Source: Candidatus Omnitrophota bacterium (lineage in GTDB: Bacteria > Omnitrophota > Gorgyraeia > Gygaellales > Profunditerraquicolaceae). From it: a stretch of DNA of 64,000 nucleotides. Made by a program: the position numbers and the translations under genes. Location: assembly GCA_035402765.1 (NCBI GenBank), contig DAONDX010000009.1:10350-74349 (forward strand). The letters are read 5' to 3'. The notes below the pieces were generated by a model that had not been told where the DNA came from, ran no database searches, and saw nothing but the letters and a program-made list of their open reading frames with translations. Positions within the stretch are counted from its first letter, which is position 1. The number at the start of each line of letters is the position of its first letter. Positions 3,706 to 59,624 of the stretch are shown one piece after another.

Positions 3706-5103
3706 ATGAATAATAAAGCTAAAGGTAAGATTACCGCGGTGCAGGGCCCGGTGGTCGACGTAAAATTTAATTCGGCCGATGATGTGCCGAATGTTTACGC
3801 GATGTTACTTACCCATACTATCGAAGGCAGCGAAGTTTTTTTGGAGGTTGCCGAACATTTACCGGGTAATGTCGCCCGGTGTATTTCGATTAATTCTACG
3901 ACAAATATTCAACGTTATGCCGAAGCTATTTTTTACGGTTCTTCCATTCAAATTCCGGCCGGGGACGGGCTTTACGGTCGCTTGATTAATGTCGTAGGTC
4001 AGCCGATTGACCAGGGAGGGCCGGTTGAACATCAGGAAAAAAGCTCGATCCGTAAAACCGATATGGGCAGCCGGGTCCGGGTCAGTAAAAATAAGGATGA
4101 GCGCCGCAGTTACGAAGTTATGGAAACCGGGATCAAGATTATCGATTTGCTGGCTCCGCTGGTTAAAGGAAGCAAAACCGGTATTTTAGGAGGCGCCGGG
4201 TTAGGCAAAAGCGTGCTGACCCTGGAGATTATCCAGCATATCGTCAAGCGTTATCAGGGGTCTTGCGTTTTTGTCGGTATCGGAGAACGTATCCGCGAAG
4301 GGAACGAATTGTATTATGAATTAAAGAATCATGATGTTCTATCTAAAACAATGATGGTATTCGGCCAGATGAACGAGCCGCCGGGGGCGCGTTTTGCTGT
4401 GGCAATGACCGGGATCACGATGGCTGAAGCGGTGCAGAAAAAGAACCAGGATGTTTTGATGTTTTGTGATAATATTTTTCGTTTTGTCCAGGCCGGTAGC
4501 GAAATCTCAACCCTTCTGGGGCGGGTGCCTTCAGAAACCGGGTATCAGCCTACTTTGCTTTCTGAAGTTAGCGAATTTCATGAACGGATCCGTACGACTA
4601 AGGATGCCGGAGGGTCAATTACTTCTATCGAGGCCGTTTATGTCCCGGCTGATGATTTAACGGACCCTGCAGTTGTGGCGATTTTTAGTTTTTTGGATTC
4701 AGTATTAGTTTTGTCCCGCGAACGGATCCAGCTGGGTTTGTACCCGGCGATTGATCCGCTTTTATCCAGTTCTTCCAATCTGGATATCGATATCGTCGGA
4801 AAACGCCATTTTGAGGTTGCCCAAGGGGTAATCAGGATGTTCCAGCGTTACGAAGAATTGCGGCGCATTGTCCTGGTAGTCGGGATCGACGAACTTTCAT
4901 CCAGCGACCGGATTATCTATGAACGGGCCCGGAAAATGCAAAATTTTCTTACGCAACCGTTTTCCGTTGCGGAAGCTTATACCGGCAAAAAAGGGGTTTA
5001 TGTAACGATTGAACAAACTCTGGAAGGCTGTGAAAAGATTATGTCCGGCAAAATGGATAGCCAGCCGGAGCAGGGATTTTATTTGATCGGGGCTTTACCC
5101 TAA
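3706..5103 (+). CDS. atpD: F-type ATP synthase beta subunit
   Basis: P-loop GGAGLGKSVL, catalytic GIGERIREG and DELSSSD (the DELSEED equivalent) are present. A ~30-aa insertion follows the N-terminal barrel. Confidence 0.95.
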   Translation: MNNKAKGKITAVQGPVVDVKFNSADDVPNVYAMLLTHTIEGSEVFLEVAEHLPGNVARCISINSTTNIQRYAEAIFYGSSIQIPAGDGLYGRLINVVGQPIDQGGPVEHQEKSSIRKTDMGSRVRVSKNKDERRSYEVMETGIKIIDLLAPLVKGSKTGILGGAGLGKSVLTLEIIQHIVKRYQGSCVFVGIGERIREGNELYYELKNHDVLSKTMMVFGQMNEPPGARFAVAMTGITMAEAVQKKNQDVLMFCDNIFRFVQAGSEISTLLGRVPSETGYQPTLLSEVSEFHERIRTTKDAGGSITSIEAVYVPADDLTDPAVVAIFSFLDSVLVLSRERIQLGLYPAIDPLLSSSSNLDIDIVGKRHFEVAQGVIRMFQRYEELRRIVLVVGIDELSSSDRIIYERARKMQNFLTQPFSVAEAYTGKKGVYVTIEQTLEGCEKIMSGKMDSQPEQGFYLIGALP

Positions 5104-53796: not shown

Positions 53797-55164
53797 ATGG
53801 AAAAGATATATTTAGCCTCCAAATCTAAAGCCAGAAAAAAACTATTAGAAAAATTTGGCCTGAAATTTAAAGTCTTGCCGGCGACAGTTAAGGAAAAAAG
53901 CCGGCGGGGTAATTTATCTTATTCTCAACTTGTCCAGAATAATGCCCGGCAGAAAGCCGAAGCGGCAGCCGCCAGGGTTGCCGGGGGAATTATCATTGCC
54001 GCAGATACGATTTGCGTGCAGGACGGTAAAATATTCGGTAAACCGAAAGACCTGCCGGGTGCCCGCCGGATGCTTAAAAAATTATCCAGTAAACCGCAAT
54101 GGCTTTATACCGGCTTGGCAGTGATCCATAAAACCCCGGGTAAACAGAGACGGATTTTGGGTTGTGAAAAAACAAAAGTTTACATGGATAAGTTAAGCGG
54201 CAAGCAGATTGACCGTTATTTTAAACAGGTCTCTCCTTTAGATAAAGCGGGGAGCTTTGACATCCAAGGTCAAGGGGCATTTTTTATTAAAAGAATTGAG
54301 GGATGCTTCTATAATGTCGTTGGCCTGCCCTTAAGAAAACTTTATTTAATGCTTGAAAAGCTTGATCTTAAGCTGTTCTCGCTTTTTCTAACTAGCGCCT
54401 GCTTATTATCTACCGTTATTCTATCCGGATGTTCCACTGAGTATAATTTAGTTACTAAACAGGAAGAAAAATATTATTACAGTACCGATAAAGAAGTGCA
54501 GATGGGCCAGTCGATTAACCGGCGGGTAGAGAAGGAATTAGTATTTTCCGGTGACCCTTTGCAGCAAAAACGCGTAGAAGAGGTGGGTAAAAAAATAGCC
54601 GCCGTCAGCGACAGGAAAGAGATTGATTATTATTTCCGGGTGCTTGATGATGAACAGATTAATGCCGTCTCTTTGCCCGGAGGTTATGTTTATGTGAATA
54701 GCGGGCTGCTGGATAAGGTGGATAATGATAACGAATTGGCTTGTATTCTGGCGCACGAAGTCGGCCATATTGTTGCCAGGCATAGCATCAAAAAACTTCA
54801 AGCTATGCAAAGTTATTCTATTTTAAGAGTGCTGGTGGCGGTTGCTCCCGCCGGGTCGGCTGAAGTGGGAAGCGCTGCGGATGCCGCTTTTACCCAATTT
54901 CTGCTTGGTTATAGCCGCGAAGATGAGTTATTGGCAGATCAATTGGGGGCCCGTTATGCTAAATTAGCCGGTTATGATCCGCATGGCATGATCGTTTTTT
55001 TGACTAAATTACAGGATATTAACCGGCGAATGCCGGTTAGGGAGCAGTCATATTATAAAACTCATCCCTATGTTCCCGACCGGATCAGGGTGGTTAAACA
55101 GGAATTGGGGGAGCAGATTGATTTCGGAGATTATATCAACATTGAACAAGAAACTCATCAATAA
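53797..55164 (+). CDS. maf: Maf-like nucleoside-triphosphate pyrophosphatase in the same open frame as an M48 lipoprotein metallopeptidase (apparent fusion or lost stop)
   Basis: A Maf domain (IYLASKSKARKKLL...FDIQGQGAFFIKRIEGCFYNVVGLP) runs without a stop into a segment that begins at the internal ATG 54349. That segment has a lipoprotein signal peptide (MLEKLDLKLFSLFLTSACLLSTVILSGC) and HEVGH. Confidence 0.55.
   Translation: MEKIYLASKSKARKKLLEKFGLKFKVLPATVKEKSRRGNLSYSQLVQNNARQKAEAAAARVAGGIIIAADTICVQDGKIFGKPKDLPGARRMLKKLSSKPQWLYTGLAVIHKTPGKQRRILGCEKTKVYMDKLSGKQIDRYFKQVSPLDKAGSFDIQGQGAFFIKRIEGCFYNVVGLPLRKLYLMLEKLDLKLFSLFLTSACLLSTVILSGCSTEYNLVTKQEEKYYYSTDKEVQMGQSINRRVEKELVFSGDPLQQKRVEEVGKKIAAVSDRKEIDYYFRVLDDEQINAVSLPGGYVYVNSGLLDKVDNDNELACILAHEVGHIVARHSIKKLQAMQSYSILRVLVAVAPAGSAEVGSAADAAFTQFLLGYSREDELLADQLGARYAKLAGYDPHGMIVFLTKLQDINRRMPVREQSYYKTHPYVPDRIRVVKQELGEQIDFGDYINIEQETHQ
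54349..55164 (+). CDS. M48-family lipoprotein zinc metallopeptidase (BepA/YfgC-like) as a possibly independent translation unit within the Maf reading frame
   Basis: Lipobox ILSGC, HEVGHIVARH and downstream EDELLAD (third ligand region) are present. Confidence 0.5.
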   Translation: MLEKLDLKLFSLFLTSACLLSTVILSGCSTEYNLVTKQEEKYYYSTDKEVQMGQSINRRVEKELVFSGDPLQQKRVEEVGKKIAAVSDRKEIDYYFRVLDDEQINAVSLPGGYVYVNSGLLDKVDNDNELACILAHEVGHIVARHSIKKLQAMQSYSILRVLVAVAPAGSAEVGSAADAAFTQFLLGYSREDELLADQLGARYAKLAGYDPHGMIVFLTKLQDINRRMPVREQSYYKTHPYVPDRIRVVKQELGEQIDFGDYINIEQETHQ

Positions 55165-56278
55165 GATAATCTGTTGTTCGGCGGTGATTTTATTAACTTT
55201 TTCTGCCCTTCAAGCTGCGGAAATTCCGCGTAAGGAAAATATGAAAAATAATCCGGCTAAAAATTTAAGTCAAGCTAATTTGGAGAACCCCTTCGGAGTT
55301 TTAGAATTTCTGCATTGGAGCCACTCCTGGAATAATTATAAATATCCCGGTGACCGTGATCTGAAAAAAGCTATTTCTTTAATGCAAAGTGCCGGAGTAG
55401 GCTGGATACGGTTAGATTTTTTATGGGAGGATATTGAGCCGCAGGAGGGCAGGTTTGATTTTGCCAAATATGATAATTTGGTCAAATTGCTTACCGATCG
55501 AGGCATTAATATTTTAGGCATATTGCATTATAGTACCAATTGGGCTTCTTCCTGCGGGGAATGGAACTGCCCTCCTAAAAATAATAAAATATTTGTTAAT
55601 TATGCCGCTCAAGTTATTCAGCGTTATAAGGGTCAGGTTAGCTATTGGGAGGTTTGGAATGAACCGGATTCAGCGATCTATTGGAAACAGCAGGATTGTC
55701 TGAAATCCTATTGTGAGTTATTAAAAGAAGTTTATGTCGCGGCTAAAAAAATCGATCCGGAATGTAAAATTCTAAACGGGGGGATTGCTAACGGATTGGC
55801 CAGTATTAACCATCTGTATGACAATGGGGCTAAAGATTATTTTGATATATTGAACTTGCATTTTTTCGAAAGTCCGCTGCATGGTAAGAATGCTATAAAG
55901 GCGGTGGCTAGTTACCCTAAGCTGGCTTATAAAATAATGGTACGTAACGGGGATGCCCGCAAGAAAATTTGGATTACTGAAATTGGCTGCCCGGGGGTTA
56001 GAGCGGGATTAAAAACTAATAATTGGTGGCTGGGCCAGAATCCTAATGAGCAGCAGCAGGCGGTATGGGTAAAGGAAGTTTATGCTGAATTATTAAAAAA
56101 TCCGCAGGTGGCCAAGATTTTTTGGGCTTTTTTCCGCGATACCAAAAAACATTGGGATAACGGAGTCGATTATTTCGGTTTGGTGCGCTGGGATTACACG
56201 CCTAAGCCTTCTTTTAAAGCCTACAAAAAGTATTTTGGGCAGTGGAAAAGTACGAAAGGAGTTCCATCGGATTCTTGA
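55070..56278 (+). CDS. Clan GH-A glycoside hydrolase (GH5/GH39-like), probably secreted
   Basis: YWEVWNEPD carries the NEP acid/base motif and KIWITEIGC the TE nucleophile motif. A signal-like segment KKLINKIICCSAVILLTFSALQAAE is present. The 5' end overlaps the previous gene by 95 nt, so the start is uncertain. Confidence 0.6.
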   Translation: MFPTGSGWLNRNWGSRLISEIISTLNKKLINKIICCSAVILLTFSALQAAEIPRKENMKNNPAKNLSQANLENPFGVLEFLHWSHSWNNYKYPGDRDLKKAISLMQSAGVGWIRLDFLWEDIEPQEGRFDFAKYDNLVKLLTDRGINILGILHYSTNWASSCGEWNCPPKNNKIFVNYAAQVIQRYKGQVSYWEVWNEPDSAIYWKQQDCLKSYCELLKEVYVAAKKIDPECKILNGGIANGLASINHLYDNGAKDYFDILNLHFFESPLHGKNAIKAVASYPKLAYKIMVRNGDARKKIWITEIGCPGVRAGLKTNNWWLGQNPNEQQQAVWVKEVYAELLKNPQVAKIFWAFFRDTKKHWDNGVDYFGLVRWDYTPKPSFKAYKKYFGQWKSTKGVPSDS

Positions 56279-56417
56279 GTGGGACTTTCCTCAGGACATA
56301 TATGCGGGAGGAGCCCCATCGGATTCTTGAGTGGGACTTTCCTCGGGAGATATATGCGGGAGGAGCCCCATCGGATTCTTAAGTGGGACTTTCCTCGGGA
56401 GATATGTGCGGGAGGAG
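56260..56417. repeat. Three tandem copies of a 52-nt unit abutting the tRNA-Leu 3' end, each carrying the tRNA's 3'-terminal 11 nt
   Basis: The unit is ccccatcggattcttgagtgggactttcctcgggagatatatgcgggaggag, with 2-4 substitutions between copies. The first copy overlaps the GH gene stop and the last merges into the tRNA. Confidence 0.8.
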
Positions 56418-56487
56418 GGAGTTGAACCCTCAAGGGTTTCCCCACACGCTTCTGAGACGTGCGCGTATGCCATTCCGCCACTCCCGC
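56407..56487 (-). tRNA. tRNA-Leu (anticodon CAG), class II with a long variable arm; CCA is not encoded
   Basis: The manually folded cloverleaf has acceptor GCGGGAG/CTCCCGC, D-stem GCG/CGC, anticodon stem CACGT/GCGTG with loop CUCAGAA, a 13-nt variable arm and T-stem GAGGG/CCCTC with loop TTCAACT. Confidence 0.85.
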
Positions 56488-56500
56488 GAAAATCCTCATA

Positions 56501-56529
56501 AGTATATCTTAGCCTTCCTCTTCTGTCAA
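56501..56529 (-). promoter_or_regulatory. Sigma70-type promoter for tRNA-Leu (TTGACA-N17-TATACT on the minus strand)
   Basis: The -10 element ends ~13 nt upstream of the tRNA 5' end. Confidence 0.5.
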
Positions 56530-56616
56530 TTAGTTATCGGGAACTAGCAGATATCGCCTGCTCGAAGGAGGGAACCTTATTTTTCGGGCAGCTTGTTTTA
56601 AATAAATTGCGGCAAG

Positions 56617-56645
56617 GTTTCTTTGCTGTTATAATACTATTTTAA
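56617..56645 (+). promoter_or_regulatory. Sigma70-type promoter (TTGCGG-N17-TATAAT) upstream of the AEC transporter gene
   Basis: The hexamers are spaced 17 nt apart and lie ~35 nt upstream of the ATG. Confidence 0.45.
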
Positions 56646-56679
56646 TAAAACTGGTGTTTTTAAACAAGCGGGGAGGATA

Positions 56680-57636
56680 ATGTTCCTAGAACAATTCAAA
56701 ATTACAGGCCTGGCAATGGTCCAGATATTTATTTTAGGCGCGCTGGGTTATATTTTAGTTAGGAAAAATATACTTTCCCATGGAGGCTTGGAGGCCTTAA
56801 GCCGCCTGGTTATCCAGATAATTTTTCCGGCTTTGGTTTTTGCTCAGATGCTCAAAGGTTTTACTTTCAGCCTGTATCCTGATTGGTGGATTTTTCCTCT
56901 GGTCAGCCTGGTGATTACCCTGGCGGGTCTGGTTGTCGGTTGGCTGCTGCTTAAAATTTCGGGGTTAAAAAACCATAAACTGCAGTTTTTGAGTTTAGTG
57001 GCCTTTCAGAATTCCGGGTATCTTCCTTTAGCCATGGCCGCGGCAATCTTTACGGGCCAGCAGGCCAGTGACATATTTATTTTTATCTTTTTGTTTTTGT
57101 TAGGTTTTGATTTAGTGGCCTGGTCATTAGGTATTTATATGCTTACTTATGAAAAACACATTAAATTCCGGCTGCGCAGCTTGTTTAGTCCGCCGGTAAT
57201 TGCGAATTTAACCAGTTTAATTTTAATTGCTTTGGGGTTAAATAAATTTATTCCTGAGGTTGTATTTAAACCTTTAACCATGGTGGGCAACTGTACGCTT
57301 CCTTTGGCAATGTTAGTGGTCGGAGGCAATGTGGCTTTAGTCGAGCTTAAGCATATTGATAAAAAAACCACGTTGATATTATTATTGGGAAAATTAATTA
57401 TTCTCCCGGCGCTGGGTATAGCACTGGTGTTAAAATTTGGCTTACCGTATTTATTGGGTTTTTTGATCGTAATGCAGCTGGCGATGCCTTCGGCAACTTC
57501 TTTATCCGTAATTATCCGGCGTTTTAACAAGCATGACGCTTTGATCAGCCAGGGGATATTTTTCAGCCATGTTATCGGATTGTTTACCATACCCTTATTT
57601 TTAAGTTTATATTTATACTTGGTTATGCTAAAATGA
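56680..57636 (+). CDS. AEC-family (auxin efflux carrier / malate permease-like) membrane transporter
   Basis: It has ~10 TM helices and AEC-family sequence features. Confidence 0.7.
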   Translation: MFLEQFKITGLAMVQIFILGALGYILVRKNILSHGGLEALSRLVIQIIFPALVFAQMLKGFTFSLYPDWWIFPLVSLVITLAGLVVGWLLLKISGLKNHKLQFLSLVAFQNSGYLPLAMAAAIFTGQQASDIFIFIFLFLLGFDLVAWSLGIYMLTYEKHIKFRLRSLFSPPVIANLTSLILIALGLNKFIPEVVFKPLTMVGNCTLPLAMLVVGGNVALVELKHIDKKTTLILLLGKLIILPALGIALVLKFGLPYLLGFLIVMQLAMPSATSLSVIIRRFNKHDALISQGIFFSHVIGLFTIPLFLSLYLYLVMLK

Positions 57637-58088
57637 GCAATATTATTGCCACTAACCGTAAGGCTTACCGGGACTATGAGGTGTTGGAGTCTTTAGAGTG
57701 CGGTATTGAATTAAAAGGCTCCGAAGTGAAGTCTTTACGCGCAGCCAGAATTAATTTGAATGATAGTTTTGCCCGTTTTGAGGAGCGGGAGATCTTTTTA
57801 TATAACGCGCATATCAGCCAATACGCGCAAGCCAGCTATCTAAATGTTAATTCGGACAGGATCCGGAAACTGCTTTTACACAAGAATCAGATTGAAAGAA
57901 TCAACGGTAAACTTACCCAAAAAGGTCTGACCTTAATTCCATTAAAAATTTATTTTAATGAACGGGGTTTCGCGAAAATAGAGCTTGGGCTTTGTAAAGG
58001 TAAAAAACTTTATGATAAGCGGGAAGATATTAAGCGCAGGGAAACGGATAAACAGCTGCGCCGGGTGATCAAGAATCGAAGAGGCTAA
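57633..58088 (+). CDS. smpB: SsrA-binding protein
   Basis: It matches the SmpB family (NRKAYRDYEV...GIELKGSEVKSLR) and is followed directly by tmRNA. Confidence 0.9.
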   Translation: MSNIIATNRKAYRDYEVLESLECGIELKGSEVKSLRAARINLNDSFARFEEREIFLYNAHISQYAQASYLNVNSDRIRKLLLHKNQIERINGKLTQKGLTLIPLKIYFNERGFAKIELGLCKGKKLYDKREDIKRRETDKQLRRVIKNRRG

Positions 58089-58122
58089 AGGAAGTTTTCC
58101 GGGCATTGTTATTTGATAATTT

Positions 58123-58520
58123 GGGGGTGAAAGGGTTCGACTTAAGATATGTCGGATAAAAGCAGCATGCCGCGGATGTAAGGTTAGCCGCGTTAACAAT
58201 CCTTGCACAATATAAACGCAAACACGACAGTGTTCAACCGCCTAGCACCAATGGCAACATTGATGCCAGCGGGCGTACCAGCCTTAGCGTTTAATTAAAC
58301 GCTAAGCCCCTGACTGTCCTGCCTACGGGATAGATTAGGGCTCAAGTAGGATAGTTCCGGCGGTTAGCCTTCCAAACCGGAGCGAAATCGAAAAGGCTGC
58401 CGTTTGCAAATCCTGCCGGGTAGGAGTTGCAAAACTAAGTGTTAAATTACCGGGCTAAGCATGTAGCGGCTTCTATGCGATTACTTAAGGACGGCGGTCC
58501 AATTCCGCCCACCTCCACCA
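58123..58520 (+). ncRNA. ssrA: tmRNA (transfer-messenger RNA, SsrA)
   Basis: The 5' GGGGGTGAAAGGGTTCGAC pairs with the 3' GGCGGTCCAATTCCGCCCACCTCCACCA (T-arm and acceptor, with encoded CCA). A candidate resume codon GCA at 58218 (tag starts AN...) lies before the stop in the AGCGTTTAATTAAACGCT hairpin. The position directly after smpB supports the call. Confidence 0.8.
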
Positions 58521-58541
58521 AAATTTTATGAATTTTTCACA

Positions 58542-59624
58542 ATGATTAAAAAATTAAATATACTATTCTTCTTAACGATACTTTTCTTTTCCGGATGCGT
58601 GACTGTTCCTACGGGTGAGAATATTGCGTCTTATTCCATTGACGGGGTAACTTATTATCCTCTGGTTACTTTATGCGATTTACGTTCGGTCTCGATGCAG
58701 TATGATCCGATTTTGCGTACCGCTTATTTAAGCAAGGATGCTCAGCACGTAAGTTTACGGATTGGCGATGCTTTGGTCTTGGTTAATGATAATGCCCTGC
58801 ATTTGAATTCTCCGGTGGATGTTTACCAGGGCGCAATTGCGGTACCCCGTCAATTTAAGGAGCAGGTTTTTGACTTGTTGTTTAGAAAAACTACCTTTGT
58901 GCATCGTCGTCCGGGAGCGGGGAAAATAAAATTAAAAAAGGTCGTCATTGATCCCGGACATGGAGGCAATGACCCCGGAGCCTTGAGTAGAAGCGGGCTC
59001 AGAGAAAAGAATGTAAACTTAGATATTGCAAAAAAATTAAGCGCTCTTTTGAGGGCCGAAGGGGTGCAAACTGTGCTTACCCGTTCAACGGATAAGTTTA
59101 TCCCGCTTTCTTCGCGGGTGAGTATTGCCAACCGTTCCGGAGCGGATTTGTTTATCAGTATTCATTCTAATGCCGCCCGTTCGCGTTCTTTATCGGGATT
59201 TGAAGTTTATTATGTCGCTCCCAGCGTGAGCGATTCTAAGCGCGCTGCTTTTACCGCGCGCAGTACCTCTTTGAATCTAAAAGATACTGTTTTTTCCAGT
59301 GATACCCAGGATTTAAAAGCGATTATCTGGGATATGATCTATACTAATAGCCGGGCAGAGTCAATTGAACTGGCGCGTTCTTTATGTAGAATCATGGATT
59401 CTAATATTGACGCTAATATTCTGGGAGTAAAGAATGCCCGTTTTCAGGTATTAAAGGGGATTACTATGCCGGGGATATTAGTAGAGGTGGGTTTTCTCTC
59501 TAATGCAAATGAAGAAAGACTGTTAAGAACCGATGCCTATCGGGAAAAATTAGCGGTAGGCATATTAGAAGGGATCAGGGATTATTCGCAGGATATGGCT
59601 TTAGTGGAGATGACCTCAAGATAG
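58542..59624 (+). CDS. amiC: N-acetylmuramoyl-L-alanine amidase (Amidase_3 family) lipoprotein
   Basis: A lipoprotein signal FFSGC is followed by an N-terminal AMIN-like domain and a catalytic domain VVIDPGHGGNDPGA. Confidence 0.8.
   Translation: MIKKLNILFFLTILFFSGCVTVPTGENIASYSIDGVTYYPLVTLCDLRSVSMQYDPILRTAYLSKDAQHVSLRIGDALVLVNDNALHLNSPVDVYQGAIAVPRQFKEQVFDLLFRKTTFVHRRPGAGKIKLKKVVIDPGHGGNDPGALSRSGLREKNVNLDIAKKLSALLRAEGVQTVLTRSTDKFIPLSSRVSIANRSGADLFISIHSNAARSRSLSGFEVYYVAPSVSDSKRAAFTARSTSLNLKDTVFSSDTQDLKAIIWDMIYTNSRAESIELARSLCRIMDSNIDANILGVKNARFQVLKGITMPGILVEVGFLSNANEERLLRTDAYREKLAVGILEGIRDYSQDMALVEMTSR

Follow-up and report, generated by a model that had tools for sequence, protein, structure and literature searches.

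A stretch of 64,000 nucleotides from contig DAONDX010000009.1 (the window), part of a Candidatus Omnitrophota metagenome-assembled genome, contains three tandem 52-nt repeats at the 3' end of a tRNA-Leu(CAG) gene. This array is interpreted, with moderate confidence, as a lineage-specific tandem amplification of an older and smaller module that was inserted at the tRNA 3' end, and it is most likely not the mark of a genomic island or of a mobile element residing there.

The three units span positions 56262–56417, each consisting of CTCCTCCCGCA and 41 nt, and read on the tRNA strand as R0-S1-R1-S2-R2-S3-R', where R is the 11-nt tail of the tRNA and S is a 41-nt spacer. The tRNA gene and the parts of the array are as follows.

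56407–56487, minus strand: tRNA-Leu(CAG) gene (ARAGORN; Rfam RF00005, 54.7 bits), with the 3' boundary at 56406 or 56407 depending on the caller
56407–56417, minus strand: R0, the last 11 nt of the tRNA itself, CTCCTCCCGCA
56366–56406, minus strand: S1, the 41-nt spacer of unit 1, with the linker CATATCTCCC, GAGGA complementary to the tRNA tail, a 23-nt loop insert and GGGG
56355–56365, minus strand: R1, a perfect copy of the tRNA 3' end
56314–56354, minus strand: S2, the spacer of unit 2
56303–56313, minus strand: R2, a perfect copy of the tRNA 3' end
56262–56302, minus strand: S3, the most diverged spacer, the plus strand of which encodes the last five codons (VPSDS) and the stop of a glycoside hydrolase (GH) gene
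56251–56261, minus strand: R', a decayed in-register fourth copy, CTCCTTTCGTA (8 of 11 positions), the plus strand of which encodes GH residues T-K-G; the distal junction of a related locus (L009, see below) offers a comparison

Tandem Repeats Finder reports a period of 52 with 3.1 copies, 94% matches and no indels (56257–56417). CTCCTCCCGCA occurs exactly three times in the window, always within the array (chance expectation 0.02), and one of these occurrences, at 56407–56417, is the end of the tRNA itself (3 nt of the T stem, 7 nt of the acceptor stem and the discriminator), leaving two additional perfect copies. The identity begins within the 3' strand of the T stem, the preceding bases being GGGG in the array and CTCC in the tRNA. 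Units 1 and 2 differ at two of 52 positions (96% identity) and the distal unit shows seven to nine differences. Both the repeat finder and the exact counts thus agree with the preliminary description of this DNA, which had reported three tandem 52-nt units ending in the 11-mer of tRNA-Leu(CAG), with a few substitutions between copies. On its own strand the tRNA gene ends in ...GGGTTCAACTCCCTCCTCCCGCA followed by CAT; the position of the discriminator A at 56407 directly before CAT indicates a gene without an encoded CCA.

The 41-nt spacer has no further copy in the window and no match in IMG/VR. An exact-pattern scan of the metagenome_contigs collection also did not find it, which is a weak negative, since this collection evidently lacks the Joint Genome Institute (JGI) contigs Ga0116247_10010380 and Ga0209099_1018559, both of which carry the spacer.

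The AEC permease protein encoded next to the tRNA is found on nine public contigs. An identical three-copy array, including the unit-specific substitutions, is present in ENA ERZ27257423 (a 78-kb contig), JGI 3300010352 and JGI 3300025858. The assemblies that span the array (L001, L002 and L004) come from different samples and pipelines and show no variation in copy number. Three more assemblies of the same species (L003, L005 and L006) end inside the array; short-read assemblers often stop at repeats. A collapsed or expanded repeat made by an assembler, to which these three contig breaks might point, is extremely improbable given the three independent and identical assemblies, an array only ∼156 nt long and units that can be told apart by their sequences. 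Thus, the array is not an artefact, and the assembly support sought for the tandem copy number is given by the three spanning assemblies.

The repeat unit and inserts at the same tRNA end in other Omnitrophota

The array was compared with ∼80 species-level Omnitrophota loci (labelled L0xx and L1xx). In ∼16 of them an insert bounded by copies of the tRNA tail lies exactly at the 3' end of tRNA-Leu(CAG); as a control, a copy of the gene's own tail within 600 nt of the transfer-messenger RNA (tmRNA) gene was found in one of 52 of the same loci. The inserts comprise 30-nt modules in L009 (two units), L010, L088 and L119, a ∼100-nt two-hairpin element in L033, L038 (four units), L043, L070, L088, L089 and L116 (with weaker cases in L098 and L073), 131-nt units in L046 and L050, a 121-nt unit present twice in L087 and a fragment from the T arm to CCA in L107. 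Four loci (L090, L092, L121 and L123) have the GH gene adjoining the tRNA with no insert and represent empty sites.

A 30-nt module consists of a tail, a linker of ∼10 nt, a 6–9-nt segment complementary to the tail and a second tail. The window unit has the same organization and aligns with the modules of L119, L009, L088 and L010 except for one 23-nt block in the loop, with CTCCCGAGGA being the same in the window and in L119:

Window unit: CATAT-CTCCCGAGGA-[AAGTCCCACTTAAGAATCCGAT]-GGGG-CTCCTCCCGCA
L119 module: TTTAA-CTCCCGAGGA-GGGA-TTCCTTCCGCA
L009 module: TAAAA-CTCATGAGGA-GGGA-CTCCTCCCGCA

The alignment thus identifies the window unit as a 30-nt module, the loop of which has been enlarged by ∼23 nt. 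The loop insert resembles the trailer of L012 and the 3' end of a response-regulator gene (TCCCACCTTAGAAT...CCGAT; p ∼ 0.01), which is only suggestive of a homology with the end of such a gene, as found in L012. Within the clade the number of small modules is zero (L090, L092, L121 and L123), one (L119, L010 and L088) or two (L009), and some members carry the two-hairpin element in place of the small module. With no more than two units, or other modules, in the rest of the clade, the triplication is specific to the lineage of the window. The same three repeats in related genomes would have contradicted the preliminary description; other species instead have different modules or none.

The two-hairpin element is ∼100 nt long and is always found in the same orientation immediately 3' of tRNA-Leu(CAG), at the following coordinates.

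L038: 2709–3125
L033: 3679–3772
L043: 3702–3798
L070: 3150–3227
L088: 2510–2613
L089: 2586–2688
L116: ∼1113–1219
Weak matches: L098, 4581–4705; L073, 3780–3893

It contains an invariant GTTCTCCCG, a first hairpin CCCGnn/nnCGGG with compensatory changes and a second hairpin with a loop that is often CCAAAAGGTTTAATCTAG (L038, L088, L089 and L116), followed by AAnTCCCTCC..CGCA (AACTCCC...CGCA in the model of the element, model R1). The element has no other occurrence in 751 kb of Omnitrophota loci and no match among the Rfam families or in IMG/VR; candidate occurrences in viruses were rejected as chance pattern matches with neither a model match nor a tRNA. The unit was also considered as a tRNA-like minihelix, but this interpretation was abandoned, since the partner needed for an acceptor-like pairing lacks conservation (L038 unit 2). 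The window array is not a member of the family defined by model R1, its best hit being the tail of the tRNA itself (18.6 bits, E = 0.065). The element and the array are thus alike in insertion point, orientation, tRNA-tail boundaries and the possibility of tandem amplification (four units in L038), but differ in sequence and structure. As a separate observation, L073 (∼3780–3885, minus strand) shows a tRNA-Leu body joined at the T loop to the loop of hairpin 2 (...GAGAGTT|AGGTTTAATTTAGAGAAACGGGAAACTCCCTCCTCCCGCACCA), in which ARAGORN detects no tRNA; this fusion represents a tRNA-Leu(CAG) gene that has been broken or else an error of assembly.

Several inserts have the polarity typical of an insertion, with a proximal tail that lacks CCA and a distal copy in which CCA is present and followed by the native trailer or by an intrinsic terminator (L010, L033, L038, L043 and L070). 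Distal copies begin in the T loop in L033, L038, L087 and L116, and the proximal and distal tails are different tRNA alleles in L116, L043, L070 and L119. A filled site can be compared directly with empty ones in L116 (1000–1245) versus L121 (1100–1238) and L090 (2530–2666): in L116 the native B-type tail AAGTCTCTTCCTCCGCA is preceded by a 107-nt block that comprises an A-type T arm and tail together with the two-hairpin element, and from the native tail onwards the locus is collinear with both empty sites. Both strands of the T stem resident in L116 belong to the foreign allele, and a single crossover in the T loop cannot produce this.

Two very different alleles of the tRNA-Leu(CAG) 3' half, GAGGGTTCAACTCCCTCCTCCCGCA and AAGAGTTCAAGTCTCTTCCTCCGCA, are mixed among close relatives (seen at L088/L090, L014/L018, L089, L092 and L121), and the 5' two-thirds of the gene barely differ. 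On a tree of the AEC protein, which as a single-gene neighbour-joining tree is only indicative, the 3'-half alleles and the modules are distributed patchily, which suggests that the 3' half of the tRNA has been replaced between lineages. Sequence comparison thus supports the view that, in this phylum, the tRNA-Leu(CAG) 3' end is a hotspot for recombination and insertion, at which short tail-bounded inserts appear to have arisen or spread many times.

Gene neighbourhood and transcription context

Two further features of the window bear on the array.

55070–56278, plus strand: convergent clan GH-A glycoside hydrolase (Pfam Glyco_hydro_42/10, Cellulase), the tail of which enters the array; a metagenome gene call starts at 55118
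56501–56529, minus strand: sigma-70-like promoter TTGACA-17-TATACT just upstream of the tRNA (promoter scan, 11 of 12 matches)

The GH protein ends in ...QWKSTKG-VPSDS*, and its TGA stop (56276–56278) falls within S3 of the distal unit, in agreement with the overlap noted previously. The 129-nt gap between this stop and the tRNA consists of the array; in insert-free relatives the GH stop is 2–21 nt from the discriminator (2 nt in L090, L092 and L102). No terminator-like site was found between the tRNA and the GH gene. Two other GH reading frames extend into neighbouring elements: in L089 (∼2500–2617) the two-hairpin element supplies the codons for the final ∼16 residues of the GH frame, and in L040 (∼3800–3828) the open frame does not stop before the tRNA but continues within its tail (...GAGGGS*).

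The window is gene-dense and of housekeeping character (ATP synthase, aminoacyl-tRNA synthetases, Lpt proteins and queuosine genes), and the gene order pyrE-HI0933-Maf/M48-GH-tRNALeu-AEC-SmpB-tmRNA is common to many Omnitrophota species, with GH identities of 50–80%. This conserved synteny identifies the GH gene as a core neighbour and not accessory DNA, so that the accessory-like neighbourhood proposed in the preliminary description has to be abandoned. Its statement that the window holds no integrase agrees with the scans made: none appears in Pfam calls within ±6 kb of the locus, and whole-window scans returned only housekeeping families among the best 25 of 114 Pfam families and the best 25 of 46 PHROG families. 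Phage_integrase is likewise not among the families matched by at least three of 84 open reading frames (ORFs) behind the tRNA in ∼45 species.

In many species, synteny breaks at the GH–tRNA junction. Between the GH gene and the tRNA-Leu 3' end, L057 (1595–3725) and L059 (1467–3655) carry a reverse-transcriptase ORF (Pfam RVT_1, 486 residues) and an ORF of ∼205–228 residues without a Pfam match; the same position is occupied by an ORF6N-domain gene in L013 and by a small response-regulator gene in L012, L018 and L119.

In the window, 61 of 66 ORFs lie on the plus strand and the GC skew is positive throughout, indicating that transcription of tRNA-Leu, which belongs to the small minority of minus-strand genes, probably runs head-on to replication.

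Some observations concern the nearby tmRNA gene. The tag peptide predicted for the window tmRNA (58123–58520) is unusually long, ANTTVFNRLAPMATLMPAGVPALAFN (26 residues). A LAGLIDADG_3-like ORF (134 residues; weak Pfam match) lies just downstream of SmpB-tmRNA in L089 (4968–5372) and L119 (3455–3859) and is absent from the window. A long and almost perfect palindrome is found in the tmRNA trailer of 13 loci (L009, L018, L023, L037, L040, L043, L050, L070, L073, L078, L083, L099 and L100), for example CCACCAAAATTTTCC-GACA-GGAAAATTTTGGTGG, and takes in the mature CCACCA end. This palindrome could serve as a terminator or as a processing hairpin that overlaps the mature 3' end, and resembles the tail-pairing complementary segments behind tRNA-Leu in L009, L010 and L012.

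Formation of the array and alternative explanations

The favoured amplification would have proceeded in two steps. An old event at the tRNA 3' end would have created a tail–spacer–tail module, the 30-nt form of which would have gained ∼23 nt in its loop in the lineage of the window to give the 52-nt unit. Unequal crossing-over or replication slippage between the 11-nt tail copies would then probably have triplicated this unit. The 41-nt spacing and the 94–96% identity of the units argue for amplification and not for three separate integrations, and the near-identity of units 1 and 2, together with the more decayed distal unit and R', fits amplification from the tRNA side. Transcription from the tRNA promoter would yield the array as a 3' trailer, to be cut away during tRNA maturation; for a gene without CCA, maturation would need cleavage after the discriminator and subsequent CCA addition. 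As consequences, the array would have moved the convergent GH gene to 129 nt from the tRNA and supplied its last five codons and stop, and its presence would be nearly neutral.

Several points weigh against this account. The mechanism of amplification is not observable from sequence. The internal R copies are perfect and the spacers are slightly diverged, a pattern that could arise from selection or gene conversion and not from youth. The copy number is the same in the three spanning assemblies, with no sign of ongoing instability, and the hairpin architecture of the unit is common to sister species, leaving room for a function. The founding module may also derive from site-specific recombination, as first proposed; further alternatives for this step are a transfer assisted by homology in the conserved body of the tRNA, or a template switch when a replication fork stalls, the latter being consistent with the inverted and direct tail copies and with the head-on orientation.

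The array could instead be a set of scars of integrative elements, in which tyrosine-recombinase elements hit the tRNA-Leu(CAG) 3' end, each bringing a replacement tail, and were later lost, leaving attachment-site (att)-like tails behind. For the array as a whole this explanation is considered unlikely. It would account for much of what is seen in relatives: the displacement of CCA and the native trailer or terminator to the distal tail, the start of distal copies in the T loop as predicted for T-loop crossovers, the occurrence of different alleles in proximal and distal tails (A versus B in L116), the filled and empty site pair, the incongruence of the tRNA 3'-half alleles with the AEC gene tree and the synteny breakpoint at the GH–tRNA junction. 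The sublocation classes that Williams is said to have described in 2002 place the crossover in the anticodon loop or the T loop. A repeat running from such a crossover to the tRNA end is found in L033, L038, L087 and L116, but in the window the repeated tail is only 11 nt long and starts inside the T stem. The window does show downstream direct repeats of the tRNA 3' part (two perfect and one decayed) and its relatives show empty sites; however, the ±6 kb Pfam calls and the best-25 family scans contain no integrase or remnant beside the repeats, and in place of cargo DNA there are only 41 nt between copies that are 94–96% identical over the unit, this spacer being homologous to the trailer modules of sister species. 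Neither the spacer nor the two-hairpin element was found in IMG/VR, Phage_integrase is not recurrent behind the tRNA in the species surveyed and the foreign T stem of L116 is again left unexplained by a single T-loop crossover. Partial tRNA copies left by successive integrations are known, for example in tycheposons (bioRxiv 10.1101/2020.12.28.424599). The att-site interpretation of the preliminary description is therefore retained only in part: the tRNA 3' end is an insertion hotspot, but repeated integration and excision explain the near-identical units less well than local amplification.

A more speculative and likewise doubtful possibility is that the tRNA-Leu(CAG) 3' end is a dedicated target of undescribed integrase-free miniature modules, which carry their own replacement tRNA 3' end, pass from one lineage to another and multiply in tandem, or that the modules are produced by template switching as replication runs into this head-on and heavily transcribed tRNA, or both. 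The modules would then be the 30-nt hairpins and the ∼100-nt element, and the triple 52-nt array of the window would be an amplified member.

The array could also be a selected part of the tRNA-Leu transcript, similar to a 3' external transcribed spacer (3'ETS), in which hairpins and C-rich tracts stop or insulate transcription antisense into the GH gene (e.g. in a Rho-dependent manner) or yield rtT-like RNAs. This is judged to be quite improbable. Single-unit folding predicts the following hairpins.

56360–56396, minus strand: predicted unit hairpin GAGGA..AGUCCCA / UGGGGC UCCUC, the 3' arm of which is the start of the next R
56308–56344, minus strand: the same predicted hairpin
56256–56292, minus strand: the same predicted hairpin, weakened

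The corresponding energies are −14.1, −16.4 and −7.9 kcal/mol with z-scores of −1.0, −2.0 and +0.2, the third value in each case being that of the distal unit. A functional trailer would be consistent with the two hairpins of −14 to −16 kcal/mol, with the strong promoter and the lack of an intrinsic terminator between the tRNA and the GH gene, and with a trailer that is moderately C-rich on the tRNA strand (C/G 1.3–1.9). The pairing between tail and anti-tail covaries (CTCCTC/GAGGAG in L009 versus CTCTCC/GGAGAG in L010), the ∼100-nt two-hairpin relatives show compensatory base-pair changes and the tyrT repeats of Escherichia coli yield the annotated small RNA RttR and the small ORF tpr (PMC3318445). 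However, folding is only weakly significant, with z-scores of −2.2 and −1.2 for the whole array and of −1.0 to −2.0 for individual units, and the hairpin of the distal unit is decayed. Unit length, copy number and sequence are not kept between species, and the close relatives L090, L092, L121 and L123 have no module, with the GH gene ending 2 nt from the tRNA. The repeats match no Rfam family at or close to its gathering threshold, a scan of 55900–58700 returning only the tRNA and the tmRNA. A complementary trailer segment is also not a phylum-wide trait: it is strong (7–9 nt) only in L009, L010 and L012, with 6–7 nt in a few unrelated loci.

Relation to known repeat systems

The attL/attR direct repeats of integrative elements that target tRNA genes, including those formed by tandem accretion (ICE/CIME arrays and tycheposons, for the last of which partial-tRNA repeats from successive integrations have been described; bioRxiv 10.1101/2020.12.28.424599), resemble the Omnitrophota loci in having an intact tRNA followed by partial copies of its 3' end, a native end that is displaced distally (in relatives of the window), a patchy distribution and empty sites in relatives. 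They differ in that no integrase, excisionase or cargo was found here, the spacers being 19–130 nt and not kilobases, and in that the copies in the window are near-identical tandem units with a repeated block shorter than typical att identity blocks.

In E. coli, 3'ETS-leuZ is a functional tRNA 3' external transcribed spacer that acts as a small-RNA sponge. It is similarly a structured trailer of a tRNA-Leu gene that is transcribed with the tRNA, as is predicted for the window; for the window array no target, conservation or terminator hairpin was found, and a function is hypothetical.

The closest precedent is tyrT-tyrV of E. coli MG1655, in which a 178-bp tandem repeat of 3.1 copies starts in the 3' end of tyrV, as checked here. 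Each of the units closes with AATCCTTCCCCCACCACCA, which is the 19-nt 3' terminus of tRNA-Tyr, and annotation places the small RNA RttR and the ORF tpr in this region. The window has the same arrangement of tandem units starting in the tRNA's own 3' end, each with a copy of that end (R-S-R-S-R-S-R), the same number of approximately three copies and an array that, for the window by prediction, belongs to the tRNA transcription unit. The tyrT/tyrV genes lie on the minus strand at 1.287 Mb and would, given the positions of oriC and dif, presumably also be head-on to replication. The differences are the unit length (178 bp versus 52 nt), the tail (19 nt from the T loop with CCA in E. coli, 11 nt from the T stem without CCA in the window), the presence of a T-arm-like remnant and a small ORF in the E. 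coli units and the unrelated phyla with no sequence similarity. A processed RNA and Rho-dependent termination have been documented experimentally for the tyrT repeats (PMC3318445); for the window array both would be hypothetical.

Thus, arrays of this kind are already known, and the present case is most likely a locally amplified trailer module and not evidence of an island. It illustrates that a convergent gene can receive a new C-terminus and a new stop codon through the duplication of a tRNA trailer. The newer lead is the recurrence of tail-bounded mini-insertions at one tRNA across the phylum, including a structured ∼100-nt element: a single tRNA gene in a poorly known uncultured phylum has both received small inserts repeatedly and, as the allele distribution suggests, exchanged its 3' half between lineages. 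These loci provide a tractable comparative system in which to ask whether tyrT-like trailers and partial-tRNA arrays arise by site-specific recombination, homology-assisted transfer or replication–transcription conflict, and whether tRNA trailers gain RNA functions.

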